From Eubacteriales bacterium (lineage in GTDB: Bacteria > Bacillota > Clostridia > Oscillospirales > Butyricicoccaceae), in assembly GCA_030523305.1 (NCBI GenBank), contig JAUNIY010000002.1, positions 2 through 64,001 of the forward strand: 64,000 bases of DNA, in the 5' to 3' direction. The position numbers and the translations under genes are program-made. The first letter of the stretch is position 1, and every line of letters starts with the position of its first letter. The notes below the pieces were generated by a model that ran no database searches, was not told the DNA's origin, and saw only the letters and a list, made by a program, of their open reading frames with translations. This document shows positions 6,726 through 39,000 of this stretch, in pieces.

Positions 6726-6745
6726 TTTATATATTTATATTATTC

Positions 6746-16558: not shown

Positions 16559-17065
16559 TCATTCCATCCAGCTTCGTTTCTTTTGTCCCTGCAAATATAT
16601 CAGCTCCGGCTCAACCATTTTCCCATGGATATCCAGGCACAGATAGGACGGCGGTTCCTTGGTATACGGCATACTGATGCTTCCCGGATTGGCAACCAGC
16701 ACGCTGCCGCTCTGCTTGATCTCAGCCGCATGGGTGTGCCCATATAATGCTACCGTACAGCGGTTTTTCTTGGCAGCCTGTTCGAGCGCGCGCGTGTTCC
16801 TGCGCACGCCGTGCAGATGCCCATGGGTGATAAAAATACGCACCTGTCCCGCACATACAACCATGCTGTCCGGCGCATCTACATTCCAATCGTTGTTCCC
16901 GCGCACGTTATATACCTGTAAATCGGGATATACATTCCTGATATCCTCCACATCAGCCACCAAATCCCCCAGATGCAGCACAGCGTCCGGATTTTCTTCC
17001 TCAATAATCGTCAGCATATCGGTGATATTGATGCGATGGGAGTCGGAAAATACAACCAGCCTCAT
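16559..17065 (-). CDS. YfcE/MJ0936-family metallophosphoesterase
   Basis: FSDSH, HLGD, RGNND, THGH, GHTH, NPGS. Confidence 0.93.
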   Translation of the reverse strand: MRLVVFSDSHRINITDMLTIIEEENPDAVLHLGDLVADVEDIRNVYPDLQVYNVRGNNDWNVDAPDSMVVCAGQVRIFITHGHLHGVRRNTRALEQAAKKNRCTVALYGHTHAAEIKQSGSVLVANPGSISMPYTKEPPSYLCLDIHGKMVEPELIYLQGQKKRSWME

Positions 17066-17912: not shown

Positions 17913-18239
17913 ATGTATAACCGTTATTTGCAAAACAGTTGCCCCCAGCACGAACCGACGTGCCCGCCGCCTCCCTGTCCACCGAAGCATGAACCGCAGC
18001 CGTGCCCGCCCGCATGTACAGAAGAGCCAGAGCATTGTGAAAAGGAGAAGGAAAGCAGCAGCATCCTGTCTCTATTGGGCGGCCTGCTCGGCGGTGAGAA
18101 AAAGGGCGGCCTGAGCAAGCTGCTGGATGACAACACGCTCCTCATCCTGATTATCCTGTTTTTCCTATTGAAGGACGACGACGGGATCGATCACGATTTG
18201 CTGATTCTGGCGGGTGTCTTTCTGTTGATTGGGCTTTAA
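17913..18239 (+). CDS. Cys/Pro-rich protein with a hydrophobic C-terminus (putative spore coat/exosporium protein)
   Basis: MYNRY start, CPPPPCPP repeats, C-terminal LLILIILFFLL..DLLILAGVFLL; RBS GGAGG. Confidence 0.75.
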   Translation: MYNRYLQNSCPQHEPTCPPPPCPPKHEPQPCPPACTEEPEHCEKEKESSSILSLLGGLLGGEKKGGLSKLLDDNTLLILIILFFLLKDDDGIDHDLLILAGVFLLIGL

Positions 18240-18874
18240 AAGCCCTCCCGACGCGTCAGCTGATACAGCAATGCGTTGACAATCGCTGCGGCGACATTGC
18301 TGCCGCCCTTGCGCCCACGCGCAACAATGTGCGGCACGCCACACGCGATGATGCGCTCCTTGGATTCTTCCACATTGACAAAGCCGACCGGGACGCCGAT
18401 CACCAGCTCCGGTGTCAACCTTTGTTCCCGGATCATTTTTTCCAACTGCATCAACGCCGTCGGCGCGTTGCCGATGGCAAAGATAACAGGTACATCCAGC
18501 TTTGCAGCACGTTCCATCGACACAATGGAACGTGTTGTTTTGCGCCGCGCGGCTTCTTCCGCAACATCTGGATCAGCGACAAAACAATGCACCTCGCCGC
18601 CAAAGGTTGCGAGTATTTTTTTGTTGATGCCTGCCTTTGCCATGTTGGTGTCCGTGACGACATGCGCTCCATTGCGGATAGCGTCCATGGCACGGCGCAC
18701 AGCCCCCTCGGAAAAGACAAGATTATCCGCATAGTCAAAATCCGCCGTCGTGTGGATCACACGCTTGACCACCGGGGCAATCTCTTCTGGAAACACCCGC
18801 TCCCCCAGCTCCTCCGTGATGATGGCAAAGCTGCGTTTTTCGATCTCCGCCGGCGTTTTATATTGCATGTCCAT
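18236..18874 (-). CDS. cbiC: Cobalt-precorrin-8 methylmutase
   Basis: EIEKRSF, RVIHTTAD, IGNAPTAL, GVPVGFV, RGRKGGSNVAAA. Confidence 0.96.
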   Translation of the reverse strand: MDMQYKTPAEIEKRSFAIITEELGERVFPEEIAPVVKRVIHTTADFDYADNLVFSEGAVRRAMDAIRNGAHVVTDTNMAKAGINKKILATFGGEVHCFVADPDVAEEAARRKTTRSIVSMERAAKLDVPVIFAIGNAPTALMQLEKMIREQRLTPELVIGVPVGFVNVEESKERIIACGVPHIVARGRKGGSNVAAAIVNALLYQLTRREGF

Positions 18875-18879
18875 TTTCG

Positions 18880-19407
18880 TTACCTCTCAATCCCGGTACG
18901 CGCGGCAATCCCTCTGTCATATGGATGCCGCACCTTTTTCATCTCTGTAATATAATCCGCCAACGCCAGTAGCTTATCCGACGGATTCCTTCCCGTCATG
19001 ACAATTTCCAGCTGTTCCGGCTTGCGCGCCAGCAGTGCGACGAGATGCTGTTCCTCCACCATACCCGTCGAGCACGCCGCCATGATTTCATCCAGCACCA
19101 GCATACGCAGGCCATCCGCCTGTGTGAACGCTGCATCCAACAGCGCCTGATGCTCCGCCCGTGCCTGCGCACGCTCCTGCGCGTTCATTTGGAACGTGAA
19201 TTTTGTCCCGCGCTTGGCACGCAGCAGCTCTACATGGGGTACATGCTGTATCGCAGTTACTTCGCCGGTCTGCCCGCCCTTGAGGAATTGTACGATGCGT
19301 ACCTTTCCGCCAGCGCCGGCACAGCGCAGCGCAAGCCCAAAGGCACAGGTTGTCTTACCTTTGCCATCCCCGCAATAAATATGAATCAATCCCTGTTCCA
19401 TGCTCAC
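18880..19407 (-). CDS. cobO: Cob(I)yrinate a,c-diamide adenosyltransferase (CobO/BtuR type)
   Basis: [34 protein letters not shown]. Confidence 0.94.
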
Positions 19408-20906
19408 ACCTCACGGTTTAAAATACGGTAAATCATATCCATATCCAGCGCATTACGCACAGCATCAGCCAACAAATCATACTGCTGCTGCTTGTACGCC
19501 TCGGTATCAAATGCTTGTACGTCTTCAGTAGAAATGCCCTTATGCTGCATCAGCGCAGCAATCAACGCTTTGCCAACCGCTTCCCGGTCAAAAATACCGT
19601 GCACATATGTGCCGTAGCAGTTTCCGCACTGCGCGCCGTCCAGGACGGTCTGATCGCCCCGAACAATGCGGAGCAGAGGTTTTGCCCCCTCTGCATATGT
19701 GGTTTCACCCATATGGATTTCATAGCCGTCAAACGCCGTACCGGACAAACCGGAACAGATTCCATCTACTTCCCGTATCGTACCGTGCACCTGCGCGGTA
19801 GTCTTATCGGCACAAAAAACCGTATGCACTGGCAAAAGCCCTATGCCGACCATGCATCCGCCTGCTTCCACGCCCTGCGGGTCTGACAGCGTCAGCCCCA
19901 TCATCTGATAGCCGCCGCAGATACCGAATACCGGGCCGCTTGCCGCTGCATATTGCTTCACCGCAGCTTCCAGCCCATTCTGCCGCATCCATTTCAAATC
20001 ATCCATGGTGTTTTTGCTGCCCGGAAGGACAATCAGGTCCGGCCTGTGCAGTTCATCGGGCCGCGCAACATAGCGCACAGAAACGCCCGGGATACGCTCC
20101 AACGGGGCAAAATCCGTAAAATTGGAAATGCGCGGCAAGCGAATCACAGCAATATCCAGCAACGCCGCCTGCCGCTTTGCGCACAAACGCTCGGATAAGC
20201 TGTCCTCGTCGTCAATATCCACATGCAGATACGGCACAACACCCACAAACGGGATATGCAACCGTTGTTCCATCATATCCAATCCCGGCCGTAAAATATC
20301 CACGTCGCCGCGAAATTTATTGATCACCAGCCCTTTGATGCGCTGCTGTTCCTGCGGCTCCAGCAACGCTACCGTGCCATACAGCGAAGCGAACACACCG
20401 CCGCGGTCGACATCCCCGACCAGCAGAACCGGAGCATCCACCAGCTCGGCCAGGCCCATATTGACAATGTCATTTTCCCGCAGATTGATTTCCGCCGGAG
20501 AGCCTGCCCCCTCTATGACAATGACATCATATTCCGCAGCAAGGCTGTTGTATGCCGTCAGAATATCGGGTATCAACTGTTTTTTGTAAGGATAATAGTC
20601 CCGTGCGGCCATCGTCCCGCGCACCTTGCCGCCCACGATCACCTGCGAACCGCAATCGCTTGTCGGCTTGAGCAAAACCGGGTTCATACGCACATCCGGC
20701 TGGATACCCGCCGCTTCCGCCTGCATGACCTGCGCGCGGCCCATCTCTGCGCCGTCCGCCGTGATATAGGAATTGAGCGCCATATTTTGCGATTTAAACG
20801 GCGCGGCTTTTCGCCCATCCTGTTTGAAAATACGGCACAACGCAGCCACTATCAGGCTTTTGCCCGCATTGGACGTAGTGCCCTGCACCATGATTACCTT
20901 TGCCAC
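19404..20906 (-). CDS. cbiP: Cobyric acid synthase
   Basis: GTG start; [41 protein letters not shown]. Confidence 0.96.
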
Positions 20907-21979
20907 AGCTTCACACCTTCTTTTTGTATTTTTAGCTCCCGCAGCGTGCGCAGCAGCGCGGCATTTTCTGCGTCTGTCCGCACCGCAACGCGGAACCACC
21001 GTTCATCCAACCCCGGAAAATTACTGCATGAACGGATCAGGACGCCTTTTTTGCGCATTTCCTGCGTCAAATCCGGTATGACTTCGTTTTTGCACAGCAA
21101 AAAGTTTGCTTTTCCCGGCACAACGAAAAGACCAAGCTCCTGTAAGCCTTGCTGTAAATATGCCCGTTGCCGCGCAATATACTGCCGCGTCCGCGCTGGA
21201 AATTCCGTATCCCGCGCCGCCGCAACGCCGCACGCCTGCGCAATAACAGACACAGACCACGGCGCGCCCATATCATACAGGCTCTCCAGCAAGCATATAT
21301 CAGATGACAAGCAATACCCCAGCCGAAGCCCCGGCATGGCGTACATCTTGGTAAACGACCGCAATACGATCAACTGCGGGTTGCCTATGATACCGTCCGC
21401 GACAGTATGCTGCTCCGGCTCGTCAAGAAAATCATAGAAGCATTCGTCTACAAGCAGCCTTGTGCCGGTCGCTGCGCAGCGTTCTATGCCTTTCTTCACC
21501 AGCCATTTCGGCATGGCCTGCCCGGTCGGGTTGTTGGGGTTGCATACCACAACCAGGTCAATCTCTGCCGTCACAGCGTCCCAAAAACGTTCGGGTACAG
21601 CAAAGCAATCGCTTTGCTGTAAGGGGAACCGTATGATTTCACTGCCGACAAGCGTCGCCGCCTGCGCGTACTCCGCAAAGGTTGGCGCGGGAAGCAGGAT
21701 TTTTTTCGGCCGCAACGCTAACAGCAGTCGGTATAACACATCTGCCGCGCCGTTGCTGCAAAAGATTTGATCGGCATCCATCTGTTCCCGCTGTGCAATG
21801 GCTTGGCGCAGCGCGCGGCACGTAGGGTCCGGATAATGCACGCAGCCGGACAGCGCCTGTTTCGCAGCCCGACGCACCCCCTCCGGCATACCAAGCGGGT
21901 TGATGCTGGCGGAAAAATCCAGCGGTTCCGCTGGCAAATCCTCCGCATAAATATCGCCGCCATGCCTGTTTTCCGTCAT
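20894..21979 (-). CDS. cobD: L-threonine-O-3-phosphate decarboxylase
   Basis: [38 protein letters not shown] (PLP lysine). Confidence 0.92.
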
Positions 21980-22049
21980 TCAATCAACCCTTTCCTATAC
22001 ACGCTGATGTAACCTCTTATGATAAATCTAGTTAACACAGAATGTCCGT

Positions 22050-23024
22050 TTATCCCAGCGGCGCCCACAGCGCAAGCAGTATCCGCAGGCCGCACAGTGC
22101 AACCACCGCCACAGCGGAAGCCCAATACATCAGCCGGTTTGTGCGCACGATGTCCTCTGGTACAATCGGCCTCGTGTCATCGCCCAACGTCGGTTTTGGG
22201 TACAGCTTTCCAAAATAGTAAGCATCCCCCGCCAGCTGGACGCCCAGAGCCCCCGCACAGGCCGATTCCGTTTGCGCAGAATTGGGGCTGGCGTGTCGCA
22301 ATCGATCCCGCCGGAAGCATTTCCACGCGCCGCAGGCGCTCAGCCCCGCGGGTTTCGCACACAAAACAAACAGCAATCCGCTCAGCCGCGCCGGGATAAA
22401 ATTCCAGACGTCGTCCATTTTGGCGGAAAACCGTCCGAAATACAAAAATGTATCATTTTTATAGCCCACCATAGAATCCAGCGTGTTCACCGCTTTGTAA
22501 GCGAATCCCAACGGCGCGCCGCCGAGCAGCAAAAAGCACAACGGCGCAATGACACCGTCGCTGGTATTTTCCGCAACCGTTTCCACAGCGGCTTTTGTCA
22601 CCTGCGCTTCATCGAGCTGCGCCGTGTCGCGCCCGACAATCCACGAAACATAGTTGCGGGCCAGCTGCAAATCCCCCGCCTGAAGCGCATGGTACACGCG
22701 CAACGCCGCAATTTTCAACGACTTCGCGGCAAAAATCTGCCAGCAGAATATGGTTTCCAGCGCAAAGCGCACCGCCGGATGCAGCAAACCGGCAACCCAT
22801 AGCAGGGCAAACGGAAGCAAGCCGGATGGAATCACGACCAAAAACCACAGCCATACGCCTGCCCAGAATTGCCCGCGATCGGAATCCGGGAACCATTTGC
22901 GCAGCCGCTTTTGCCAAAAGGAAATCATCGCGCCAATGCCCATTACCGGATGCCACAGCCGTTCCGGATCGCCAAGGATGCAATCGATCAAAAATCCCAG
23001 AGCTACCGCCGCTACCATGCGCAT
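22050..23024 (-). CDS. cbiB: Adenosylcobinamide-phosphate synthase
   Basis: GDPERLWHPV, IVGRDT, ETVAENTSDG, YKAVNTLDSMVGY, SPNS; RBS AAGGAGG. Confidence 0.95.
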   Translation of the reverse strand: MRMVAAVALGFLIDCILGDPERLWHPVMGIGAMISFWQKRLRKWFPDSDRGQFWAGVWLWFLVVIPSGLLPFALLWVAGLLHPAVRFALETIFCWQIFAAKSLKIAALRVYHALQAGDLQLARNYVSWIVGRDTAQLDEAQVTKAAVETVAENTSDGVIAPLCFLLLGGAPLGFAYKAVNTLDSMVGYKNDTFLYFGRFSAKMDDVWNFIPARLSGLLFVLCAKPAGLSACGAWKCFRRDRLRHASPNSAQTESACAGALGVQLAGDAYYFGKLYPKPTLGDDTRPIVPEDIVRTNRLMYWASAVAVVALCGLRILLALWAPLG

Positions 23025-23344
23025 GTTTCCTCCTTGATACACTGCGGAATACCGCAGCATACGCGGTATACGCGATCCGCCCGCGCTGCAAGGTCGCAGC
23101 ACAGCCGCCCGGTGTGTTCGCGCCAATCGCGTTCCATCGCATCCATCGGCACCACACCGCAGCCCAATTCATTGCACACGACAGTTTTGCCCAAAAATTC
23201 CTCCGCCTTTGGTATCGGCCTTCCCTCCTGCATCGCTGCCTTGACGATGGCATGTAAATTGTCCACAATTTCGGTTTGCGGCGATATCGTTTTTGCAAAG
23301 GCAGTCTTACCCTGCGCCGCACCGCCAACGATCAATATGGTCAT
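23012..23344 (-). CDS. Short (110 aa) CobU/CobP paralogue
   Basis: GGAAQGKT P-loop plus VCNELGCGVVP...ADRVYRVCCGIP; central RIxxHxxxR segment absent. Confidence 0.85.
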   Translation of the reverse strand: MTILIVGGAAQGKTAFAKTISPQTEIVDNLHAIVKAAMQEGRPIPKAEEFLGKTVVCNELGCGVVPMDAMERDWREHTGRLCCDLAARADRVYRVCCGIPQCIKEETCAW

Positions 23345-23366
23345 TTTTCGTTCCTCTCGATCCGCA

Positions 23367-24146
23367 TCAGCGCATACACAAGCCGCAAACGACAGCCGCA
23401 AGCAGCGCAAGCGTTTCCATCATCGTAATACACATACCGCACAAATCCCCGGTAATCCCACCGAATTGCCTATAGCACAAGCGGACATGGTACACAAAGT
23501 ACAGCAGAAGCAGCACAAACACCGCAAGGCCGAAGCCTTTTCCCAAGAACAGCAGCCAGCAGACACTGGCGGCAATCCAGCCCGCCATCACATAGGATAC
23601 CTGCTTTTTGTCCGTGTTGTCCGCAAACATACGCGCCAGCCCGGAATCCTTTGCACACTTCTGCGTCACAATCAGATCGCCGCCAAAGGCGCGCGCCAAC
23701 GCATACCCCGCAAACAGGAATCCGGCAAACTGCGGCGTATCATACAGCTGTGCAAACAAGCCAAACTGCGCCAGCAGCAACACAACCATCCAGAGGATAC
23801 CGAAGGCGCCGACGTGTGGGTCCTTCAAAATTTCCAGCTTTTTTTCCGTTTCGCTGTATGAACACAGCGCGTCACAGCTATCGACAAAGCCGTCCACGTG
23901 AATCCCGCCCGTGATGGCAACTGGGAGCAACACCGCACCTGCCGCATACAGCATGGTATGCAACTCCCAATGCTGTGCCAGCAACAGCCAGCCATATTCG
24001 CACGCACCGACCAGCACGCCAATCAGAGGCAGAAAGCCCAGCGCATAGCGCATGGTATGCTTTTTCCATTCCACCTGTGGCAACGGCAATGCGGAATACA
24101 TTCCAAATGCGACGAGCAAGCCGCTGAAACAATCGCGCAATATCAT
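23367..24146 (-). CDS. cobS: Adenosylcobinamide-GDP ribazoletransferase (cobalamin synthase)
   Basis: TGGIHVDGFVDSCDA, ILKDPHVGAFG, FGGITGDLCG; multiple TM helices. Confidence 0.95.
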   Translation of the reverse strand: MILRDCFSGLLVAFGMYSALPLPQVEWKKHTMRYALGFLPLIGVLVGACEYGWLLLAQHWELHTMLYAAGAVLLPVAITGGIHVDGFVDSCDALCSYSETEKKLEILKDPHVGAFGILWMVVLLLAQFGLFAQLYDTPQFAGFLFAGYALARAFGGDLIVTQKCAKDSGLARMFADNTDKKQVSYVMAGWIAASVCWLLFLGKGFGLAVFVLLLLYFVYHVRLCYRQFGGITGDLCGMCITMMETLALLAAVVCGLCMR

Positions 24147-24673
24147 TCTATCGTCCCTTTTCTCATCACTGCAATGCCAAAAACGCTTTCCACCACGCAA
24201 TCCGCCCGCTGTGCCAATTGCTGATTGAGCACGCCGAGCGCATGCAGGTACCGCATGGTCCATGCATCGTAGGTCGCGCCGTCCGTGAAGATATCGTTTG
24301 TCACGACGACAACATGCGGGCAAGCTGCACACAGCCGGTCGATACCAGCCAGGATGCTTTGCTCCCATCCGTCCCCTGCGCCCTCGGGCGAAAACATTTC
24401 ATTTGCCAGTGCATTGCCCATGCATTCAAATAACGCTCCTGCATAGCCCGCCGGGACTGCCATCCGGTCAAACCGTTTGGCGTGTTCGAGCGTGGTAAAG
24501 CCCTTTCCGGCGCGCAGCGCACGATGACGCGCGATGCGTCGGCGCGCTTCCTCTCCATCCGGTTCCATTGCCGCGACGTATAGCATCGGCTTTCCATCCG
24601 CCAGCCGGCAGAGGATGGTTTCTGCCAGCTCGGATTTTCCGCTGGCAGCGCCGCCGGTTATCAAGACCAGCAT
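24143..24673 (-). CDS. cobU: Adenosylcobinamide kinase/guanylyltransferase
   Basis: ITGGAASGKS, RRIARHRALR, ECMGNALANE. Confidence 0.92.
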   Translation of the reverse strand: MLVLITGGAASGKSELAETILCRLADGKPMLYVAAMEPDGEEARRRIARHRALRAGKGFTTLEHAKRFDRMAVPAGYAGALFECMGNALANEMFSPEGAGDGWEQSILAGIDRLCAACPHVVVVTNDIFTDGATYDAWTMRYLHALGVLNQQLAQRADCVVESVFGIAVMRKGTIE

Positions 24674-24676
24674 GGC

Positions 24677-25735
24677 TCAGGACAGCGGCTGATACGCTTC
24701 GATGTTGCTGTCCTCGAAGGTATTGCCATTGCAGTACAACGCTGCCGCCGCGTCCAGCATCCCAAACATCAGCACCGCGCCGGTCCCCTCTCCGAGCGCC
24801 ATATGCGCGTCGATCAGCGGCTTGATGTCCAACGCCTGTTCCAGCAGCATCCCCGCCGGTTCCGCTGCATGGTGGGACGGGATCAGGTAATCCCGCACGG
24901 TCGGGCACAGACGCGCGGCGCACAACGCCCCTGCCGCCGAAATGACGCCGTCCACAATGACCGGTAAACCGCAGGCCGCACAGCCCAAAAACAACCCGGT
25001 CAGGCCGCACAGGTCGAATCCGCCAACCTTGGTCAACACATCGACCGGGTCGTGCTGATCCGGCTGCATCCGTTCCAATGCATCGGTAATGACCTGTATT
25101 TTCCGTTCCAATCCCGCTGTCGTTAGGCCGGAGCCTCTTCCGGTCACAAGCTCGATCGGCGCGCGCAGCAACGCCGCCACCACAGCGGAGGCCGTCGTTG
25201 TGTTACCGATACCCATTTCGCCGGTTGCAATGATATCATAGCCCTGCGCCCGGCACAGATACGCGGTTTCGATCCCGACTTCTATGGCGTGCAACGCCTG
25301 TTCCCGCGTCATCGCCGGCTCGTTTGCGATATTTTTCGTGCCATAGGCAATCTTGCGCCGCAGGATATGCTCGCCCGTCACCTCGCTCGCCACACCGATA
25401 TCCACCGGCAGGACATCCGCACCGGCGGCACGCGCCATATGGCACACGGTGGACGTACCCTTCGACAGGTTTTCCGTGATGATCTTTGTGACGTCCTGCC
25501 CGGTCTGGGAAACGCCTTCTGCCACAACCCCGTTATCCGCACACAGAATCACCACGCATTTGCGGCGCAGATCAATCGCCGGGGAACGGCGGATGCCTGC
25601 AATGCGGATCAGGAGCTTTTCCAGATCGCCCAAGCCATTCAGCGGCTTGGCAAGCGAATCCCAATGTACCTTTGCCCGCGCCATGGATTCATAATCCAGC
25701 GGCAAGATATCCTGTATCGTTTGTTCCAGCGTCAT
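24677..25735 (-). CDS. cobT: Nicotinate-nucleotide-dimethylbenzimidazole phosphoribosyltransferase
   Basis: LAKPLNGLG, ADNGVVAEGVS, GEMGIGNTT, GRGSGL, MALGEGTGA. Confidence 0.96.
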   Translation of the reverse strand: MTLEQTIQDILPLDYESMARAKVHWDSLAKPLNGLGDLEKLLIRIAGIRRSPAIDLRRKCVVILCADNGVVAEGVSQTGQDVTKIITENLSKGTSTVCHMARAAGADVLPVDIGVASEVTGEHILRRKIAYGTKNIANEPAMTREQALHAIEVGIETAYLCRAQGYDIIATGEMGIGNTTTASAVVAALLRAPIELVTGRGSGLTTAGLERKIQVITDALERMQPDQHDPVDVLTKVGGFDLCGLTGLFLGCAACGLPVIVDGVISAAGALCAARLCPTVRDYLIPSHHAAEPAGMLLEQALDIKPLIDAHMALGEGTGAVLMFGMLDAAAALYCNGNTFEDSNIEAYQPLS

Positions 25736-27123
25736 GTTGTTTCCTCCTGGAATATGTCATGATATGTGTGTTCTGCCTGCGTCTGACAGTACATGCGGCA
25801 GGCGGACAAAAACCGCTGCGCCGCAAGGAGATTGCCCGCAAAGTGGATATGCGGATATCCTGCGTGCAGCGTCTGCGTCGCATGGACGCAGTCCCAACCA
25901 CGGTTGCGCAGCGGCTTTTGTGCATAAAAGTCTGTCCCCGGCTGCGTGCTTTGTACATAATGAAATTCATGCGCAGTCAATGATTCCCCCGCCCGGCACA
26001 GCAGCGAATCGCGTTTCGCCGTCATCGTGATATAGCCAAATTGCCGCAGCCGTGTCCCCAGCTCTGCTGTACCGCCGCAGACGCCTGCCATGTGTTCTCC
26101 TTCCAGCACGTCGTGCAGCAGCAAAAAGCCGCCGCATTCCGCAATCGTGGGAAGCCCACGCTGTATGGCCGCCCGTATCTCGGCCAGTATCGGTGTACGT
26201 TCACTGAGCTGCTTCGCATACAGCTCCGGATAACCGCCGCACAGCAGCAGGCCGTCGATCTGCTGTGGTAAACACGTGTCATACAATGGCGAAAACGACA
26301 CAAGCCGCGCGCCCATGCGTTCAAGCGTTTCCAGGCTATCCGCATAGTCAAAACAAAACGCCTCGTCGCGCGCCACAGCAATGCGCAGCCCTGCGCCGCA
26401 CAGCGGGACCTCCGGCAATGCGGCGGGAAGATCCGGTGCACGCTGCGCCAGCGCAAGCAGACCGGAAAGATCCATTCCTTCTCTCGCGTGCTGCGCCAAA
26501 AGATGCATTTTTTGCTGTAAGCCGCTGATTTCACTCGCTGTCACCAGCCCCAGATGGCGGCTTTCCACCGCACAGGCCGCATCACGCGGCAGCGCGCCAT
26601 ATACGTGCAATCCTGTATTCCGCTCAACGATACCGGCGTAATACTCCGTCATCGAGGCGGAAACGCCGTTTAGTATCACACCCTGTATTGTGTTTTCGCC
26701 AAACGACAGCAGCCCCTTGAGCACTGCCGCCAGCGTCAGCGACATCCCTTTTGCAGACACTACCAAAACAGATGGCGACTGTGTGAGATTCGCAATATCC
26801 GCCGTGGAGTTTTCGCTCGACGTACCGGCAAGCCCGTCATAGTAGCCCATGACGCCCTCAATGACCGAGATATCCTGCCCTGCGCTGTGCGCCAGCAACG
26901 CTGGAACCGTTTCCCTGCTGCACAAAAACGTGTCCAGATTGCGCGAACGCGCGCCGATCACCCTGCTGTGAAACATCGGGTCGATGTAATCCGGCCCGCA
27001 CTTGAAGGCCGCCGTATCCAGCCCTTGCTCCACAAAGGCTTGCAGCAGCGCGCAGGTTACAGTCGTTTTTCCGCATCCACTCCCCGTCCCGCCGATGACC
27101 AGGCGCGGCGCACGGACGTTCAC
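25732..27123 (-). CDS. cbiA: Cobyrinate a,c-diamide synthase
   Basis: GTG start (RBS GGAGG); GSGCGKTT, FKCGPDYIDP, IEGVMGYYDG, GGYPEL, AECGG, HEFHY. Confidence 0.96.
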   Translation of the reverse strand: MNVRAPRLVIGGTGSGCGKTTVTCALLQAFVEQGLDTAAFKCGPDYIDPMFHSRVIGARSRNLDTFLCSRETVPALLAHSAGQDISVIEGVMGYYDGLAGTSSENSTADIANLTQSPSVLVVSAKGMSLTLAAVLKGLLSFGENTIQGVILNGVSASMTEYYAGIVERNTGLHVYGALPRDAACAVESRHLGLVTASEISGLQQKMHLLAQHAREGMDLSGLLALAQRAPDLPAALPEVPLCGAGLRIAVARDEAFCFDYADSLETLERMGARLVSFSPLYDTCLPQQIDGLLLCGGYPELYAKQLSERTPILAEIRAAIQRGLPTIAECGGFLLLHDVLEGEHMAGVCGGTAELGTRLRQFGYITMTAKRDSLLCRAGESLTAHEFHYVQSTQPGTDFYAQKPLRNRGWDCVHATQTLHAGYPHIHFAGNLLAAQRFLSACRMYCQTQAEHTYHDIFQEETT

Positions 27124-30579: not shown

Positions 30580-32075
30580 CTATGATATTCCTCCTGTAAT
30601 GTTGTGAGCATTGCTTCAATGGTAGCATGTGCCGCAGTGATGGTACGCATACCGGCGGCTTTTGCCGCTTTTTCTGTGGACGGGCCAATACAAAGTGCCA
30701 AAAAGCCTGTCAGCTCCGTACCCTCCGGCAGGCTGTTGACAAAGCCGTGCACCGTAGATGCACTGGTAAACGTCACGTAATCGATCGCGCCGTCGGCCAG
30801 CAGCTGCGCCATCTCCTCACTGCGCCCGCTGCGGTACAGCGTGCGGTAAACCGGGACATCGTCAAACGATACGCACGCCTGTGCCAGCAGCTCCGGCAAC
30901 TCCGGCGCACCGATTTCCGCGCGCAGCATGAGCACACGCTCGCCTTCCTGCACCAGACGGATCAATCCTTCCGCCAAGTGAGCGGAATCATACACAGCCG
31001 GGATGTAATCCGCGCGCAGTCCGTGCTCTTCCAGCTTTTTGGCAGTCCCGGCGCCGATGACCGCTACCTTCATGTGCGCCAGGCTGCGCATATCCATATC
31101 GGCCGCGCGAAGCAGCTGCACCAGCACTTCCACGCCCGCCGGGCTGGTCAGCACAAGCCAATGGTATTGCTCGATGGCGGCCAACGCCTCGACTACGGGC
31201 ATATTTGGCCAGATGGTTTCGGTTTCAATGCACGGATATGAAATGACATCGGCACCCAGCTCCCGCAAGCGATGGGTCAACGTCCCGGCGCGCTGTCTGG
31301 GACGGGTGACCGCTACGGTCGCGCCATGCAGCGGCAGCTTGTCGTACCAGTCAAAAGCATCGGACAGCGCGCAGACCGCACCGACAATCAACACGGCCGG
31401 GCTGGAAATCCCAGCCTCCTGCATGGCCTGCGCCAGCGTGCCGACCGTCGCCACAACCTTGCACTGGCCCGGCAGCGTGCCGCGTTCTACCATAGCCGCA
31501 GGCATATCCGCAGACATGCCCGCCTGCTGCAAACCCGCCAAAATCATCGGCGCACTGCTGACACCCATCAAAAATACCAGCGTGCCCTTGTGGCGCACCA
31601 GCGCGTCAAAATCAAGATCCAGCTCCCCGCCAGCTTTTGCATGGCCAGTGATGATGTGCACCGAGGAAGCAAACGCCCGGTGCGTCACCGGAATGCCCGC
31701 ATAGGCCGGTACGGCAAGCGCACTGGTCACGCCCGGTATCACGGTAAAATCCACACCATTTTCCGCCAGCAGCTCCAGTTCTTCCCCGCCGCGGCCGAAC
31801 AAAAAGCAATCGCCGCCCTTCAGACGCACAACGCGCTTGCCCTCCTTCGCCTTTTCCAGCAGGATTTCATTGATGCGCCACTGTGGCACCGGATGGTGGC
31901 AGCTCCGTTTGCCGACGTCGATGCATTCCGCCTTGGGCGGCATCAACGCCAGAATTTCCGGCCCGACCAACCGGTCATATACCACAACATCGGCATCCAA
32001 AATGGCTTGCCGCCCCTTCACAGTCAGCAGCCCAGGATCGCCCGGGCCTGCGCCGACCAATGTGACATGTCCCAT
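30576..32075 (-). CDS. cobA/hemD: Fused uroporphyrinogen-III C-methyltransferase / uroporphyrinogen-III synthase
   Basis: VGAGPGDPGLLT, RLKGGD.FLFGRGGEE; C-terminal VTRP, LTSPAGV, FTSASTV, CIGPST. Confidence 0.95.
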   Translation of the reverse strand: MGHVTLVGAGPGDPGLLTVKGRQAILDADVVVYDRLVGPEILALMPPKAECIDVGKRSCHHPVPQWRINEILLEKAKEGKRVVRLKGGDCFLFGRGGEELELLAENGVDFTVIPGVTSALAVPAYAGIPVTHRAFASSVHIITGHAKAGGELDLDFDALVRHKGTLVFLMGVSSAPMILAGLQQAGMSADMPAAMVERGTLPGQCKVVATVGTLAQAMQEAGISSPAVLIVGAVCALSDAFDWYDKLPLHGATVAVTRPRQRAGTLTHRLRELGADVISYPCIETETIWPNMPVVEALAAIEQYHWLVLTSPAGVEVLVQLLRAADMDMRSLAHMKVAVIGAGTAKKLEEHGLRADYIPAVYDSAHLAEGLIRLVQEGERVLMLRAEIGAPELPELLAQACVSFDDVPVYRTLYRSGRSEEMAQLLADGAIDYVTFTSASTVHGFVNSLPEGTELTGFLALCIGPSTEKAAKAAGMRTITAAHATIEAMLTTLQEEYHR

Positions 32076-32076
32076 A

Positions 32077-32961
32077 CTATCCCTCGCTTTTCATTCGCAG
32101 CGCCAGCTCCGCTGCATATGCGGCGGCATCGGCCCGCGGGCAGGTTATGGTTTCGATGCGGGAATGCATCCGGTCTTCTGTGACATACAGACCGGTCAGC
32201 CGGACGGTATCGGCATCCGCCAGCTGCGCAAACGCCGCCACCGGCGACGAGCAGCCGCCATCCAGCGCGCGGATAAACGCACGCTCAGCCAGCGCACAAT
32301 CCCATGCATACGCATCGTGAAATTTTAACAAAATATCGCAATCAAAGCCCTGTCGCGCCTGCACAGCAAGAATGCCCTGGCAGGCGGAAGGGAGGATTTC
32401 TTCCGGTGTAAAAACGTGATGGATGCGCCGTTCTAACCCGAGGCGGCGCAAGCCCGCCTGCGCCAGAATCAATGCACCGTATTCCCCGCTGTCCAGCTTG
32501 CGCAAACGCGTCTGGATATTGCCGCGCACAGGCTTCACCGCAATGCCGGGATACAGCCTTTGTATCTGCACCGTGCGGCGCGCGGAGGCGCAGCCCACCG
32601 GCTTGGTTTGATCCCACTGCGTACAGCCCTCCGGCAGTACCAGCACGTCATACGGCGTTTCCCGCCGGGAAACCGCGACAAGCGGTAACCGTTCGTCCAA
32701 CTGCGTTGGCAAATCCTTCATCGAGTGTACGGTCAGGTCAACGGCTCCGGCCAGCAGCGCGCGATCAAGCTCTTTGACAAACAGCCCTTTGCCGCCGACT
32801 TTGTCCAGCGTCCGATCCAGGATTTTGTCGCCGATCGTTTTCATCGTGACCAACTGCACATCTACATCGGGATTGCAAGCACGGATGGCATCAATGACGA
32901 TTTCACTTTGGATAACCGCCAGCTTGGAATCCCGGCTTCCTACACGGATGGTTCTGCGCAT
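32077..32961 (-). CDS. hemC: Hydroxymethylbilane synthase
   Basis: VGSRDSKLA, KGLFVKEL, VHSMKD, RGNIQTRL, AERAF...GGCSSP. Confidence 0.96.
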   Translation of the reverse strand: MRRTIRVGSRDSKLAVIQSEIVIDAIRACNPDVDVQLVTMKTIGDKILDRTLDKVGGKGLFVKELDRALLAGAVDLTVHSMKDLPTQLDERLPLVAVSRRETPYDVLVLPEGCTQWDQTKPVGCASARRTVQIQRLYPGIAVKPVRGNIQTRLRKLDSGEYGALILAQAGLRRLGLERRIHHVFTPEEILPSACQGILAVQARQGFDCDILLKFHDAYAWDCALAERAFIRALDGGCSSPVAAFAQLADADTVRLTGLYVTEDRMHSRIETITCPRADAAAYAAELALRMKSEG

Positions 32962-34133
32962 CGGTTTTCCTCCTCCCGTAAAACTGCCTCGATGGCGTGC
33001 GCTGTGCGCGCCGTTTTCTTGTGATCGCTGCCATCGGACACCACGCCAACCGACAGCCCCGCACCCGTGCGTACCGCCGGGAAGAAAAAGGTGCATTCGT
33101 CCCGATTGTCCGCCGTGCTGACAAAAATACCGCGCTCCATGCACAGCTCATAAATGCGGTGGTTGATCGCTCTGCAATCGGTTGCGGCCGCGACCAGAAA
33201 GGCCCCGTCCAAATCCCCGGGACAAAATTCCCGTGTCAGACGACGCGCGCCCTGCGGCGTCTCCCCTTCGGGAGCGACCACCGTGACATCCGCGCCATAC
33301 CGCAGCAAAACCGCAGCCCGATGCGCACCGATGTTCCCGCAGCCGACCACCAGACACCGTTTCCCGGTCAAATCGACAAACAACGGAAAACGCGGAGGTG
33401 CCTCAGAAAGCAGCAGATCGCGCACCGCCTCCGGCGTCATGCCATCCTCCTGCGGGCGATCTATCAGGATTACCGTGCAGCCGCACGCCTTTGCCGCCGC
33501 CAGCTTTTCCGGCAAACCGCCCGCCGTGCCGGTGTCCTTTGTCACCAGCCATTGCGCGCCGCAGGTATGCAGCAGCGCGGTATTGAGTTCCTGTGAAAAC
33601 GGCCCCTGCATCATGATGATATGCGCCGCTGGAAAGCCAAGCTGCTTGCAAATATCGAGCGAAGCCGCCGCAGGCAACACCCTGGGCCACAGCCGCTGCG
33701 CATAATCCGGCACCGCAGTAAAGCAATGCAGCTCCTTGCTGCCGACAGTCAACAGCACGGCGCCCTGCGTTCCCGCCAGGTATTCCGCCGCCTCCGATGC
33801 GCTTCCGACGCGGACAACGCCCTCCGCCTGCGTCCTGGGGCGCAGCAGCCGGATGTATCGGCAGCCTGCCGCCTGGCACGCCTGCCGGATGTTTTGGCTC
33901 ACCTCCACAGCATATGGATGCGTGGCATCGACAGCCAACGCCGCCCCCTGCAAAAAGTCCGTCATCTGCTGCGCCGTCATGCGCCCGGTGTGCACCGTAA
34001 TGCCCGGCATTTCCGTCAGGACGGCTTTGCCGTATTCCGTGGCCACGCACACCGTTGCGCACAGACCAGCCTGCGACAACTGCTCACACAGCGTCCTTCC
34101 TTCACTTGTTCCAGCAAAAATAATCCGCTTCAT
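32940..34133 (-). CDS. cbiJ: Cobalt-precorrin-6A reductase fused to a SirC/Met8/CysG-N-like precorrin-2 dehydrogenase domain
   Basis: N-terminal FAGTSEG, DATHPYA, GPFSQELN, TKDTG; C-terminal (approx 32940-33395) FPLFVDLTGKRCLVVGCGNIG, AATD, ADNRDECTFFFPA. Confidence 0.9.
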   Translation of the reverse strand: MKRIIFAGTSEGRTLCEQLSQAGLCATVCVATEYGKAVLTEMPGITVHTGRMTAQQMTDFLQGAALAVDATHPYAVEVSQNIRQACQAAGCRYIRLLRPRTQAEGVVRVGSASEAAEYLAGTQGAVLLTVGSKELHCFTAVPDYAQRLWPRVLPAAASLDICKQLGFPAAHIIMMQGPFSQELNTALLHTCGAQWLVTKDTGTAGGLPEKLAAAKACGCTVILIDRPQEDGMTPEAVRDLLLSEAPPRFPLFVDLTGKRCLVVGCGNIGAHRAAVLLRYGADVTVVAPEGETPQGARRLTREFCPGDLDGAFLVAAATDCRAINHRIYELCMERGIFVSTADNRDECTFFFPAVRTGAGLSVGVVSDGSDHKKTARTAHAIEAVLREEENRCAEPSV

Positions 34134-34858
34134 TTGTTTTCATACCCTCTCGGCGTGACGAGTTTACCATGGATCACCCTGGTCTGGCTGTTGCCGATGA
34201 ATACCGTTGTGAACATATCCACGTTGGTATCACGCAGCTGTGCCAGCGTACAAACGGCATGCTGCTCGCCGTCCCGTCCGATGTTGCGCACAGTACCGCA
34301 CGGCGTATCCGCCGCTTTGCTCTTGAGCAGGATGTCACATGCCTTTTGCAGATAATCCGCACGCTTGCGGCTGGATGGGTTGTACAGGCAGATGCAAAAA
34401 TCCGCCTGCGCCGCCAAATCCAGACGCTTTGCAATCGTCTCCCACGGCGTCAGCAGGTCGCTCAGGCTGATGACCGCAAAATCATGCATCAGCGGCGCAC
34501 CCAGCACCGCCGCGCCGCCGCACGCCGCCGTAATCCCCGGGATGACTTCGATTTCCAATTCCGGATACGCGGCGCACACCTCATGCATCAGCCCCGCCAT
34601 ACCATACACCCCGGCATCGCCGGAACAGACCATCGCAACCGTCTTTCCGCGCAGCGCGGCGTCGCGCGCCTGTACGCAGCGGTCAATTTCCTGCCGCATC
34701 GGCGTCTGTAATATTTCCTTATCGCCGATGTAATCGCGTACCAGATCCATATATACGGTGTAGCCCGCGACAATATCACTTTTTCGTATGGCATCCAGCG
34801 CGCGCGGCGTCATCTGATCCGCGCCGCCCGGCCCAATGCCAATGACATACAGCTTCAT
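34130..34858 (-). CDS. cbiH: Cobalt-precorrin-3 C17-methyltransferase
   Basis: LYVIGIGPG, SGDAGVYGMA, PLMHDFAVISLSD, LYNPSS, TPRGY. Confidence 0.96.
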   Translation of the reverse strand: MKLYVIGIGPGGADQMTPRALDAIRKSDIVAGYTVYMDLVRDYIGDKEILQTPMRQEIDRCVQARDAALRGKTVAMVCSGDAGVYGMAGLMHEVCAAYPELEIEVIPGITAACGGAAVLGAPLMHDFAVISLSDLLTPWETIAKRLDLAAQADFCICLYNPSSRKRADYLQKACDILLKSKAADTPCGTVRNIGRDGEQHAVCTLAQLRDTNVDMFTTVFIGNSQTRVIHGKLVTPRGYENK

Positions 34859-36090
34859 GTCGTCCTCCTGTCCCGCAGCTGCGGCGCTTTGCGCAGCATG
34901 GTTTCCCGGCAAGTGCGTAGCGCATGGTCGGACAACTCCCCCTGTAAGCTGCTGAGCAGCAACCGCGCGGTTTTTTCCGCCGCCAACCGCGCCGCCTGCT
35001 CCATCTTGTCCGCTGTCTGTTCGTCTTCCCCCGCCGACAGCACGGCAAGGTCATAGCCGGTTGCAATGCGTTCGCTGGCAAGCCGCCCCAGCTCATCCAT
35101 CAGCGGCAGCGCTTTTCGATATGCCTTCCAGCGCAGCAGCTCCGCCATTTCCTCATCAATGATGTCGTGTACCTGCTTGCAGCTGTCCACATCGACCTGC
35201 GCATCACGCCCGCCCATGCTGTCCATATCCAGGAAAACCTGTACGCCGGGCAGGTGGCGGATCGCCGGGTCAATGTCACGCGGGATCGACAGGTCACAAA
35301 CCGCATCAGGCACGCGCGCAAGCGTCTCCATGCTCTCCCGCGTGACGGTATAATGTGGGCTTGTGGTCGCGCTGAGCAAAATATCGCACTGCGGCACGGC
35401 CGTCATGCGTTCGTCATATGCAATGGTCCCACAGCCCGCCGGGACAACCGTCTGCCCACGCCGGTAAGAGCGCAGCGTCACAGTAACCTGACAGCCTGCC
35501 GCCACCAAAAGGCTGGAAGCAAGCCGCCCCATCTCACCATTGCCAATGACCAATGCACGCTTTCCTCTAACATCCCCTATCGTATCTTTGAGCAGCGCAA
35601 CCGCCTGTCCTGCAACCGAAAGCGGCGCTGCGGAAAGCCGTACCTGTGTGCGGCTGCGCTTGCCTGCGGTCGCCGCCAGACGAAACAGCTGGCTGAGCAC
35701 GGCGTCGGTTGTCCCGGCTTCATGCGCGATCTGGTACGCGCGTTTGACCTGCGACACAATTTGATCTTCCCCTAAAATCTGCGAACACAGACCGCACGCA
35801 ACCTCCATCAGATGCCGCTCCGCTTCCTCCGCCGTGCGTTCGGAAAACAGATGCTCCGCGCCCGCTTCCCCTGCCGCCCGGCACAGGATTTCAGCCGGCT
35901 TGCATGCGCCGTTTCCACTGAGATAGATTTCCGTCCGGTTGCAGGTTGACAGCAGCACGCAGCCATCGACACCCGCAACATCGGCAATCTGACGGCACAT
36001 CCGTTCTACCTGGCTGTTTGTGAACGAAAATGCTTCCCGCTTGTCCATATTCGCATGTTCCCAGTCGATTCCAGCCATGCAAATGCTCAA
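34855..36090 (-). CDS. hemA: Glutamyl-tRNA reductase
   Basis: TTG start overlapping the cbiG stop; LSTCNRTE, GEDQIVSQ, IGNGEMG, DLSIPRDI. Confidence 0.94.
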   Translation of the reverse strand: MSICMAGIDWEHANMDKREAFSFTNSQVERMCRQIADVAGVDGCVLLSTCNRTEIYLSGNGACKPAEILCRAAGEAGAEHLFSERTAEEAERHLMEVACGLCSQILGEDQIVSQVKRAYQIAHEAGTTDAVLSQLFRLAATAGKRSRTQVRLSAAPLSVAGQAVALLKDTIGDVRGKRALVIGNGEMGRLASSLLVAAGCQVTVTLRSYRRGQTVVPAGCGTIAYDERMTAVPQCDILLSATTSPHYTVTRESMETLARVPDAVCDLSIPRDIDPAIRHLPGVQVFLDMDSMGGRDAQVDVDSCKQVHDIIDEEMAELLRWKAYRKALPLMDELGRLASERIATGYDLAVLSAGEDEQTADKMEQAARLAAEKTARLLLSSLQGELSDHALRTCRETMLRKAPQLRDRRTT

Positions 36091-37103
36091 AATACAATCC
36101 TCCAATCCTCGCAATACAACGATATGGTCATACCGTCTTGCGCCGTTTTCTGTAGCAGGCAGCGTCCGCCTCGGGACGCCTTTGCCGCCGCACGCTGGCA
36201 TACATTGTCTGTCCCGGTGACCCGCCGTACAAATTCCGACGGCGAGAAATCCCCTTGTACCTGTTCCAGCTCCTGTGCGGTATAAAACTGCACCGGTACA
36301 TGCCATGCTTGCGCCAAGCGGCACACCGCCGCCTCATCCCGCTTCAAATCAATCGAGGCCACAGAAGCCACAGCGCGTATATCGATCTTCTCACGCTCCA
36401 ACACCTGCCGCGCCCAGCGCGCAAGCGCGTCCGGCGGTGTATTTCGCTTGCACCCTAAGCCCACATGTACAATGCGCGGCGTCAGATACAGCGTATGCGC
36501 AAATGGGCCGTCGTCGCGGCGATCCATCGAAATCTCCACACCATATGTCAGCGAAAGATCCGTGGCTATGCCGTCCGGCAACGCGCCCGAAACCGGGAAA
36601 GTGCTGTGCAAACCCACCTGTTCCCCACGCAGCAGCGCGCCGGAAATGTCCTTGATGGCATTGATATTGCGCACGACACAGTTGTGTTCGGCTGCCCAGC
36701 TGTCCACAGCAAAGATCCCGCGACCATCGGTTGCCGTCGTGATGACCGGAACAGCGCCCAGCGCCAAAGCAAGCCGCTGCACCAAACGGTTTGCGCCGCC
36801 GATATGCCCGGACAGCAGCGAAATGACAAACCGTCCGTTTTCATCGATGACGAGAACCGCGGGGTCGGTGTCCTTGCTCTGCACAAACGGCGCGATGGCC
36901 CGCACCGCAATACCAGTCGCGCCGACAAACACAATGGCATCTGCATGTCCCATCGCATATTGTGCAAAGCTTCGGACGGTTTCATACCTCTGGAATCCCG
37001 CCGCTTTTGCATATAATTGTACCTGTTCTTCCGGCAATTGCGCGGCAATGCTCCTGCTCAGCGCACGCCCGCGGTCTGTGAACGCGATGACATCGATATT
37101 CAT
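36087..37103 (-). CDS. cbiG: Cobalt-precorrin-5A hydrolase
   Basis: ATGIAVRAIAP, KDTDPAVLV, SGHIGGAN, VITTATD, GLGCKR. Confidence 0.95.
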   Translation of the reverse strand: MNIDVIAFTDRGRALSRSIAAQLPEEQVQLYAKAAGFQRYETVRSFAQYAMGHADAIVFVGATGIAVRAIAPFVQSKDTDPAVLVIDENGRFVISLLSGHIGGANRLVQRLALALGAVPVITTATDGRGIFAVDSWAAEHNCVVRNINAIKDISGALLRGEQVGLHSTFPVSGALPDGIATDLSLTYGVEISMDRRDDGPFAHTLYLTPRIVHVGLGCKRNTPPDALARWARQVLEREKIDIRAVASVASIDLKRDEAAVCRLAQAWHVPVQFYTAQELEQVQGDFSPSEFVRRVTGTDNVCQRAAAKASRGGRCLLQKTAQDGMTISLYCEDWRIVF

Positions 37104-37855
37104 GTATCCGCCTCGCGGCATCCATGCGCAAACGACGGGTCATACAGCTTGGACCGTTCATATTGCCCGCCCAAAAAACCGCCGACGGTAATCAATGCCG
37201 TCTGACGGATACCGTTTTCCTGCGCCGTTTGCTCCAATCCCGCAATCGTCGTGCGGAACACCTTTTCCTCCGGCCAGGTCGCCTTATACACAATCGCTGC
37301 GGGCGTTTCCGGCGCATAGCCGCCCGCGATCAGCTCTTCGGCCAGCTTGCCAAGCATCCCGGCAGACAGGAACAGCACCATTGTACTGCCATGTGCCGCC
37401 AGTGCGCGGATGGATTCGCGTTCCGGCACCGGCGTGCGGCCCGCCATTCGGCTCAAAATGACAGTCTGGCTGACATCCGGCAACGTATATTCCGCCCGCA
37501 ACGCTGCCGCCGCGCCGCAAAAGGAGGAAACCCCAGGGCATACGTCATACGTGACGCCATGCGCTTCCAGTATATCCATCTGTTCGCGGATGGCACCGTA
37601 AATCGACGGATCGCCGGTGTGCAGACGCACAACCTCCTTACCAGCCCGCGCCGCCGGGAGCATTACCTCCATGACCTGCTCCAATGACATGGACGCGCTG
37701 TTATACACGGCGCATCCAGCTTTTGTACGTGTCAAATGCGCCGGATTGACCAGAGAACCGGCGTATACAACAACATCCGCTTGCTCCAGCAGCTTCGCGC
37801 CGCGAATCGTAATCAAATCCTCCGCTCCCGGGCCTGCCCCAACAAAATGAATCAT
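37100..37855 (-). CDS. cbiF: Cobalt-precorrin-4 C11-methyltransferase
   Basis: FVGAGPG, YAGSLV, RLHTGDPSIYGA, SQTVIL, SKLYDPSF. Confidence 0.96.
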   Translation of the reverse strand: MIHFVGAGPGAEDLITIRGAKLLEQADVVVYAGSLVNPAHLTRTKAGCAVYNSASMSLEQVMEVMLPAARAGKEVVRLHTGDPSIYGAIREQMDILEAHGVTYDVCPGVSSFCGAAAALRAEYTLPDVSQTVILSRMAGRTPVPERESIRALAAHGSTMVLFLSAGMLGKLAEELIAGGYAPETPAAIVYKATWPEEKVFRTTIAGLEQTAQENGIRQTALITVGGFLGGQYERSKLYDPSFAHGCREADT

Positions 37856-37857
37856 TG

Positions 37858-39000
37858 CTATTCCTCCTCCCGCAGCGCCGCAATGCAGGCAGCTGCCTGT
37901 TCCGTCTGCATCATGACGCCATATTGATTGGTAAAAACCACATAATCCACAGAAAATGGCTTACCGGATTTCCCGGATGTCCGCCGCGTCAGATGCGACA
38001 GCAGTTTGTCTGCAATTGAATCGAGTACGGGCTTGTCCAGCCCCGCTTGCTGCAAAATTTCCAAGCAGGCATCCACCGTAACCGCCTGCATTAGCCTGCG
38101 CACGGTTTCGGTATCCGCGCCGCACAGCGCGGCGTGCGCGGCGAAAATCTCCTGACGTGCATCCGCATAGGCAGAATGCGTCTGAAAAACGCCGGCCGCC
38201 AGCTTAATCAGCTTGCCCGCATGTCCAATCAGCAAAACGCCGTCAAACCCACAGTAAACCGCATAATCCAACGCTTCCCCGATAAAATTGGAGCATTTGA
38301 CGCCTTTTGCAAGATCCAAACCAAAGGTTTCCTTTGCAAAGTCCGCGCCGTAATTGCCCGGACACAGCAACACAATACGCTGTCCGGCAGCACGGCGCGC
38401 ATCCAGCTCGACATGGATGGTATCAATCAGCGCCTGCTCGCTCATCGGCTCGACAATGCCGCTGGTTCCAAGCACAGACAGGCCCCCCACGATGCCCAAA
38501 TGCGGGTTAAACGTGCGCGCGGCCAGCGCTTCACCACCGGGAATGGAAATCATAACCGAAAAGCCGCCGGAATACCCATACTGCTGCGCCACTTCGCGCA
38601 GAGCGCATGTGATCTGCTCGCGCGGCGCAGGATTGATCGCCGCTGTGCCGACCGGCTGCGCCAGCCCCGGACGCGTCACCCGCCCGACCCCTTCGCCGCC
38701 ATCAATCACAATCCCAGTGTCGATGCGCCGCACCGTGGCATACACCAGCACATGATGGGTAATGTCCGGGTCATCCCCGGCGTCCTTGCGCACCGCACAG
38801 CGCACCGCCTCACGTGTGCGCGTCATATCTTCCACATCCAACGTCAGGCCGATGCCCTTCGGCGTCATCAGCCGTACCTGCCGCACAGGTTTGCCGCACA
38901 ACAAGGCAACAGCGGCCGCCTTCGCCGCAGCCGCTGCACAACTGCCGGTCGTGTAGCCCAAAGCAAGCTGTTTCCTGTTTTTTACCACATACCGGTCCAT
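37858..39000 (-). CDS. cbiD: Cobalt-precorrin-5B C1-methyltransferase
   Basis: GYTTGSCAAAA, KDAGDDPD, AINPAPR, TFNPHLGIVGGLSVLGTSGIVEPMS. Confidence 0.97.
   Translation of the reverse strand: MDRYVVKNRKQLALGYTTGSCAAAAAKAAAVALLCGKPVRQVRLMTPKGIGLTLDVEDMTRTREAVRCAVRKDAGDDPDITHHVLVYATVRRIDTGIVIDGGEGVGRVTRPGLAQPVGTAAINPAPREQITCALREVAQQYGYSGGFSVMISIPGGEALAARTFNPHLGIVGGLSVLGTSGIVEPMSEQALIDTIHVELDARRAAGQRIVLLCPGNYGADFAKETFGLDLAKGVKCSNFIGEALDYAVYCGFDGVLLIGHAGKLIKLAAGVFQTHSAYADARQEIFAAHAALCGADTETVRRLMQAVTVDACLEILQQAGLDKPVLDSIADKLLSHLTRRTSGKSGKPFSVDYVVFTNQYGVMMQTEQAAACIAALREEE

Follow-up and report, generated by a model that had tools for sequence, protein, structure and literature searches.

Anaerobic, i.e. 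early-cobalt-insertion, biosynthesis of vitamin B12 (B12) is encoded in Clostridia and in Salmonella by gene clusters of the cbiA-P, cobUST and hemALBCD type, and CbiK from Salmonella enterica (1qgo/2xwp) is a class II sirohydrochlorin cobaltochelatase. A cluster of this kind is found in a Eubacteriales bacterium of the Butyricicoccaceae (GenBank assembly GCA_030523305.1, contig JAUNIY010000002.1), of which we analysed a stretch of 64,000 nucleotides ("the window"), corresponding to the whole of contig C245 (64,004 bases). With the clusters of Clostridia and Salmonella it shares cbiD, cbiG, four corrin methylases, cbiJ, cbiET, cbiC, cbiA, cbiP, cbiB, cobD, cobU, cobS, cobT, cobO and the hem genes, all arranged as one co-directional block. 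Unlike those clusters, however, the block has no riboswitch and lacks cbiK/X, cbiL, cbiMNQO and cobC; cbiL is present as a distant copy and the gene for a cytoplasmic CbiK is apparently deleted. Based on our findings we consider it probable that the pathway is split, that cytoplasmic cbiK was excised, leaving only an exported CbiK devoted to import, and that B12 is now obtained mainly from outside the cell.

The block comprises 20 genes of the anaerobic route (18236-39000, minus strand), assigned by Pfam and NCBIfam profiles, which are matched end to end, and all genes are full-length. The pathway-specific proteins CbiD and CbiG, accompanied by CbiF, CbiH, CbiJ, CbiE, CbiT, CbiC and CbiA, identify the route as the anaerobic one. 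The first-pass annotation, made from the letters of the window alone, had listed hemALBCD, cobA, cbiDFGHJETCAPB and cobDOUST, all of which are present and complete, and had noted that cbiK/X, cbiL, cobC, pduX, cbiMNQO and bza are missing. These absences hold for the entire contig, as six-frame family searches of C245 retrieved no CbiK/CbiX, no fifth tetrapyrrole methylase, no His_Phos_1 phosphatase, no CbiM, no ThiC/Bza and no GHMP kinase. Likewise, an Rfam scan for the cobalamin riboswitch (RF00174) gave no match in the window and none upstream of the cbi genes. The same six-frame searches were extended to the whole assembly (G000), a metagenome-assembled genome (MAG) of 2.79 Mb in 251 contigs that is 97.2% complete and 0.6% contaminated and whose smallest retained contig measures 1,542 bp. 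For comparison we used the 24 species genomes of its GTDB genus, i.e. G000 and 23 congeners.

Most near-complete congeners carry two CbiK genes, an exported long form and a short form of ~260 amino acids that has no signal peptide and is 34% identical to the long form. The short gene is the immediate downstream neighbour of a sigma-factor gene in no fewer than 14 of the 23 congeners, six of which have it facing sigE; in G013 the contig ends before the sigma position. Only in G000 is the site between the sigma gene and its neighbour empty: the sigma gene and sigE are both located on contig C120, 47 bp apart, with nothing but a terminator hairpin between them. When this site is aligned with that of congener G007, 12 nt stand against 948 nt, which in G007 hold cbiK and a promoter-like TTGACA-17-TATGCT, whereas the flanks are ~85% identical and the downstream terminator is retained. 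Thus, the contiguity of sigma gene and sigE, with 12 nt in place of 948, indicates that cytoplasmic cbiK has been excised at its ancestral site and that this site does not fall into an assembly gap. A tblastn search of G000 with the cytoplasmic CbiK of one congener retrieved only the exported lipoprotein, at 34% identity. The distribution of the two forms among the genomes is in line with their distinct roles, as all six congeners that have only the short cbiK also have cbiD, and G006 (88% complete), which has only the long form, lacks cbiD and cbiL. Among the near-complete genomes, only G000 has the cluster together with just the long form. JGI metagenome contigs contained no match to the same deletion junction and none to the same end of the sigma gene. 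The probable loss of cbiK is specific for this lineage and is masked by the exported paralogue.

This paralogue is the only place in G000 that is matched by the chelatase families PF06180 and PF01903 (C138:769-1776, minus strand, 281 bits). The encoded protein consists of a signal peptide with a lipobox (LLSGC), an acidic linker of ~50 residues and a full-length CbiK domain, and it aligns with Salmonella CbiK (1qgo, E = 8e-47), Porphyromonas gingivalis FetB (9b86) and periplasmic CbiK from Desulfovibrio vulgaris (2xvx). The lipobox is conserved in the long forms of the congeners, and homologues from other taxa have either a lipobox or a Sec signal. An internal start that would yield a cytoplasmic isoform was considered and rejected, as the stretch from the lipobox to the first strand of the domain has no in-frame ATG, GTG or TTG. 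Two congeners encode a longer version, with open frames of 412 (G017:C4, L033) and 466 amino acids (G009:C64, L034) and an extra conserved segment between lipobox and chelatase domain.

The gene lies directly behind the single cobalamin riboswitch of G000 (RF00174, 102 bits). The complete operon can be read in G016 (L041:3557-9255), where the riboswitch is followed by the genes for the CbiK lipoprotein, a NEAT-like lipoprotein, a BtuF-type binding protein, a FecCD permease and an ATP-binding cassette ATPase. In G000 it is spread over three contigs (C138:1-2178, C55 and C109:9185-10414), which also code for the NEAT-like lipoprotein, BtuF, BtuC and BtuD. Of 80 loci from Clostridia of gut and rumen (Ruminococcaceae, Oscillospiraceae and Lachnospiraceae), ~70 contain the five-gene module, and the riboswitch is present at all nine that were checked for it; a search of a limited literature library found no paper on an exported CbiK module in Firmicutes. 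A biosynthetic CbiK would reside in the cytoplasm, whereas the lipobox signal directs this one out of it. Its lipoprotein signal, acidic tether and position at the head of an import operon thus mark the C138 protein as a predicted extracytoplasmic part of corrinoid import and not as a biosynthetic enzyme. The first-pass annotation had suggested that the missing genes sit in a separate, possibly riboswitch-controlled locus, and for CbiK this is right insofar as a homologue does lie behind a riboswitch, but that homologue is an exported lipoprotein for import and not the chelatase of the pathway. With the biosynthetic cbiK apparently deleted, cobalt insertion may instead follow one of the two other proposals made there, replacement by non-orthologous activities or a supply of salvaged intermediates.

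Nevertheless, the exported protein retains what look like the residues of a chelatase. H218, E249 and H281 align with H145, E175 and H207 of Salmonella CbiK, the His/Glu/His residues of the site, and they do not vary in any of 80 exported homologues. Moreover, in five congeners (G002:C6, G013:C34, G031:C4, G034:C7 and G018:C3) cbiL directly follows btuD in the riboswitch operon, so that their riboswitch probably represses the step after cobalt insertion as well. One may therefore imagine that the lipoprotein is itself the chelatase of the pathway, which would metallate or capture an early tetrapyrrole extracellularly, with the product entering via BtuFCD and being taken up by CbiL. We regard this as very improbable, though: the cytoplasm is where sirohydrochlorin is made; G006, which has the exported form but neither cbiD nor cbiL, links that form to uptake; a cytoplasmic cbiK is present in every other near-complete congener that has the exported form; and, like capture systems, the module includes a BtuF-type binding protein together with a NEAT-like protein.

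If the cytoplasmic chelatase is lost, relaxed constraint might be expected to leave a trace in the remaining B12 proteins. In a relative-rate test of G000 against G007, with G016 as outgroup, 19 B12 proteins showed 473 replacements specific for G000 and 376 specific for G007 (binomial p = 0.001), with more replacements in G000 in 15 of the 18 informative genes, whereas the 13 control proteins showed 165 and 192, respectively (odds ratio of B12 versus control proteins 1.46, Fisher p = 0.003). This suggests that constraint on the B12 proteins of G000 is mildly relaxed. The cell needs corrinoids, as indicated by one strong frame with a B12-binding domain, ~819 amino acids long and MetH-like. We envisage the following scenario for the excision that we favour. 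An ancestral cytoplasmic cbiK beside the sigma-factor gene would have been excised in this lineage, efficient de novo insertion of cobalt would have been lost with it, and the B12 required by the MetH-like enzyme would be met mainly by import, while the rest of the pathway would not yet have decayed and may function at a low level via chelation that is either spontaneous or carried out by the SirC-like domain described below.

Several points weigh against this scenario. The acceleration signal is modest and is set against only 13 control genes, and the frames of some of these may have been called wrongly; that 20 of 20 cluster genes are full-length is compatible with continued use no less than with recent loss; and the genome is a single fragmented MAG, in which the assembler may have collapsed a strain variant carrying cbiK, or the variant may have been dropped as too short a contig. 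Relocation of the gene to a part that was not assembled is also conceivable, since the positions of both cbiK and cbiL are fluid within the genus. Carried to its end, this line of thought would make the loss an artefact of assembly or population, with the organism, or part of its population, keeping a cytoplasmic cbiK and thus a complete, if split, pathway. In an assembly of 251 contigs and 97% completeness, where the uptake operon, too, is split across three contigs, a bubble of ~950 bp would indeed fall below the smallest contig retained and be discarded. However, the ancestral site is contiguous and cleanly devoid of cbiK, neither the two chelatase families nor tblastn give a second match in 2.79 Mb, and a pathway under full selection does not predict the mild acceleration of the B12 proteins relative to G007, so that we consider an artefact unlikely.

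Apart from CbiK, G000 offers a single candidate for a chelatase, a SirC-like domain fused to CbiJ, at least as far as profile searches and alignments tell. Ferrochelatase and CobN gave no match in the assembly, and the search for a second SirC/Met8p yielded just two weak Rossmann matches. The fusion gene (32940-34133, minus strand) encodes CbiJ followed by a truncated SirC/CysG-B-like nicotinamide adenine dinucleotide (NAD)-binding domain (NAD_binding_7, residues ~249-397), which covers positions 1-128 of the 205 of TIGR01470 and presumably acts as precorrin-2 dehydrogenase. In CysG D104 is needed for chelation, whereas the dehydrogenase-only SirC from Bacillus megaterium has a Ser at this position, and CysG-B also acts as sirohydrochlorin cobaltochelatase (PMC7018833). 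With the class III dehydrogenase-chelatases CysG-B and Met8p the CbiJ-fused domain shares the Rossmann NAD domain and an Asp aligned with D104 (motif ADNRD; alignment to 1pjq/6pr0). A class III module, however, has a DAPK loop with Pro106, a Pro133 platform and a three-part architecture of ~200 residues, whereas here the loop reads DNRD and thus lacks the proline, a His occupies the P133 position, and the domain, which is fused to CbiJ, ends after ~149 residues without the C-terminal helical part.

From this domain a pathway that is fully functional without CbiK can be construed, in which sirohydrochlorin receives its cobalt either from the CysG-B-like domain, as a class III enzyme with both dehydrogenase and cobaltochelatase activity, or by spontaneous insertion. 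The D104-equivalent Asp, the cobaltochelatase activity of CysG-B and the integrity of all cluster genes speak for it. On the other hand, the loop proline is missing, the domain is truncated, the same motif is found in G007, the congener compared, which keeps its cbiK, so that there is no sign of compensation in G000, and a separate cbiK beside a sigma-factor gene is retained by at least 14 congeners. Hence a fully functional pathway of this kind appears just as unlikely as an artefact. The narrower version, in which de novo corrinoids would receive their cobalt from the truncated CbiJ-fused domain without any cytoplasmic class II chelatase, strikes us as quite unlikely, but, if true, it would mean that an anaerobic route independent of CbiK/CbiX exists in nature.

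As to the other missing functions, cbiL, cobC and cobalt transport conform to an ordinary split cluster. Methylases of family PF00590 match six times in the G000 assembly, namely in cbiF, cobA, cbiH and cbiE of the window, in RsmI and in one gene on C182. The latter (C182:2248-2955, minus strand, 235 amino acids) scores 188 bits with TIGR01467, above the cut-off of 163, and is thus a canonical cbiL; it stands alone, flanked by the genes for a flavin adenine dinucleotide (FAD)/Rieske oxidoreductase and a sodium transporter. Three His_Phos_1 proteins, on C27, C14 and C133, have TIGR03162 (CobC) as their best match (130, 131 and 110 bits), all below the cut-off of 163, and none adjoins B12 genes. 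The first-pass proposal of a separate locus therefore stands for cbiL and holds loosely for the CobC-like phosphatases, while the genome-wide profile search for canonical cbiK, cbiL and cobC, whose presence elsewhere was to make this an ordinary split cluster throughout, found only cbiL. A gene for a Metallophos_2 phosphoesterase (window 16559-17065, minus strand), located between cbiC and coaX here as well as in G007 and G016, hints weakly at a non-orthologous alpha-ribazole-phosphate phosphatase. As to dedicated cobalt uptake, neither CbiM (PF01891) nor NiCoT (PF03824) matched in the G000 assembly; four congeners with a listed completeness of 100% (G007, G004, G010 and G031) lack CbiM as well, and half of the genus has it. 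Candidates for two further functions were dismissed: the sole ThiC-family gene follows a thiamine pyrophosphate riboswitch and is a thiamine gene rather than bza, and the five GHMP kinases considered as PduX are IspE, ThrB, two galactokinase-like proteins and one heptose-kinase-like protein.

How the split may have arisen can be read from the congeners. CbiM is usually the first gene of cbiMNQO. In G016 the gene order is ksgA, a CbiM match, cbiD, cbiL and cbiG onward, i.e. CbiM lies between ksgA and cbiD, whereas in G000 and G007 ksgA abuts cbiD and cbiD abuts cbiF. The stand-alone CbiL of G000 is 72% identical to that of G007, but only 45% to the in-cluster CbiL of G016 (C18:85968-86615), which suggests displacement by a distant copy rather than simple relocation. 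The junctions shared by G000 and G007, the divergence of cbiL and its linkage to btuD in congeners together show that the split is a lineage trait that is ordinary for the genus. In G007 the cluster differs in two further details, as its cobD open reading frame (ORF) is 569 amino acids long (L048:7420-9129, G007:C65) versus 361 in G000, and five unrelated genes, GNAT, TraX, DJ-1 and DUF6518 among them, are inserted between cobD and cbiP.

Within the window, the block is preceded by rsmA/ksgA (39013-39882, minus strand like all genes of the block; Pfam RrnaAD), which lies directly upstream of cbiD with a gap of 12 nt and no riboswitch in between. Then follow cbiD (37858-39000; PF01888, 327 bits) and, abutting it, cbiF for the C11 methyltransferase (37100-37855; TIGR01465, 332 bits, above cut-off), cbiG (36087-37121; domains CbiG_N, CbiG_mid and CbiG_C), hemA (maximal ORF 34855-36324; GlutR_N and Shikimate_DH, domain from residue 85), cbiH for the C17 methyltransferase (34130-34912; TIGR01466, 316 bits, above cut-off), the cbiJ-sirC fusion, hemC (maximal ORF 32077-33144; Porphobil_deam domains, from residue 66), a cobA-hemD fusion (30576-32075; TP_methylase and HEM4, TIGR01469, 305 bits), hemB (29596-30579; ALAD, 507 bits) and hemL (maximal ORF 28301-29698; Aminotran_3). 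The second half is formed by a cbiE-cbiT fusion (27120-28304; TIGR02467 and TIGR02469, both above cut-off), cbiA (maximal ORF 25732-27516; NF002204, 428 bits, residues 137-559), cobT (24677-25735; DBI_PRT, 411 bits), cobU (24143-24673; NF004469, 76 bits, below cut-off with the whole profile matched), cobS (maximal ORF 23367-24368; PF02654), cbiB (22050-23126; CobD_Cbib, 361 bits), cobD for L-threonine-phosphate decarboxylase (20894-21979; TIGR01140, 305 bits, above cut-off), cbiP (maximal ORF 19404-20999; CbiA and GATase_3 domains), cobO for the corrinoid adenosyltransferase (18880-19407; PF02572) and cbiC (18236-18874; PF02570, 273 bits). The maximal ORFs do not contain extra domains: in the 594-residue cbiA frame the first ~136 residues run over cbiET in a different reading frame, and the excess length of the hemA, hemC, hemL, cobS and cbiP frames is likewise due to upstream extension across the neighbouring gene in a different frame. 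Outside the block the window contains a T-box leader (6476-6730, minus strand, 133 bits) upstream of acetolactate synthase/ilvD genes and a SbcC/Rad50-like ORF of 1035 amino acids (53204-56311, minus strand), which accounts for a strong AT-skew outlier at 54-56 kb.

Genome-based calls of B12 producers in the gut rest on gene checklists. Here, such a checklist would tick CbiK, as the exported import paralogue matches the same Pfam and NCBIfam models, although the cytoplasmic gene is gone, so that CbiK matches need to be checked for location and gene context. Moreover, as a natural cbiK-null whose pathway is otherwise intact, G000 would allow one to ask whether cobalt can be inserted without CbiK/CbiX. 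As all 20 genes are still intact and protein change is only slightly faster, the genome may capture an early stage of the transition from producer to scavenger.

The protein left behind is best understood by comparison with described CbiK-type proteins. With Salmonella CbiK the C138 protein has the full domain and the H145, E175 and H207 positions in common; unlike it, however, it has the signal peptide of a lipoprotein and, as a tether, ~50 acidic linker residues, and its gene belongs to an import operon. It is not alone in leaving the cytoplasm, as D. vulgaris CbiK(P) and P. gingivalis FetB are also exported CbiK-fold proteins tied to the handling or transport of tetrapyrroles. In contrast to these two, the C138 protein, whose ligand is putative, is a Gram-positive lipoprotein that is encoded behind a cobalamin riboswitch and is paired with a NEAT-like lipoprotein and BtuFCD.

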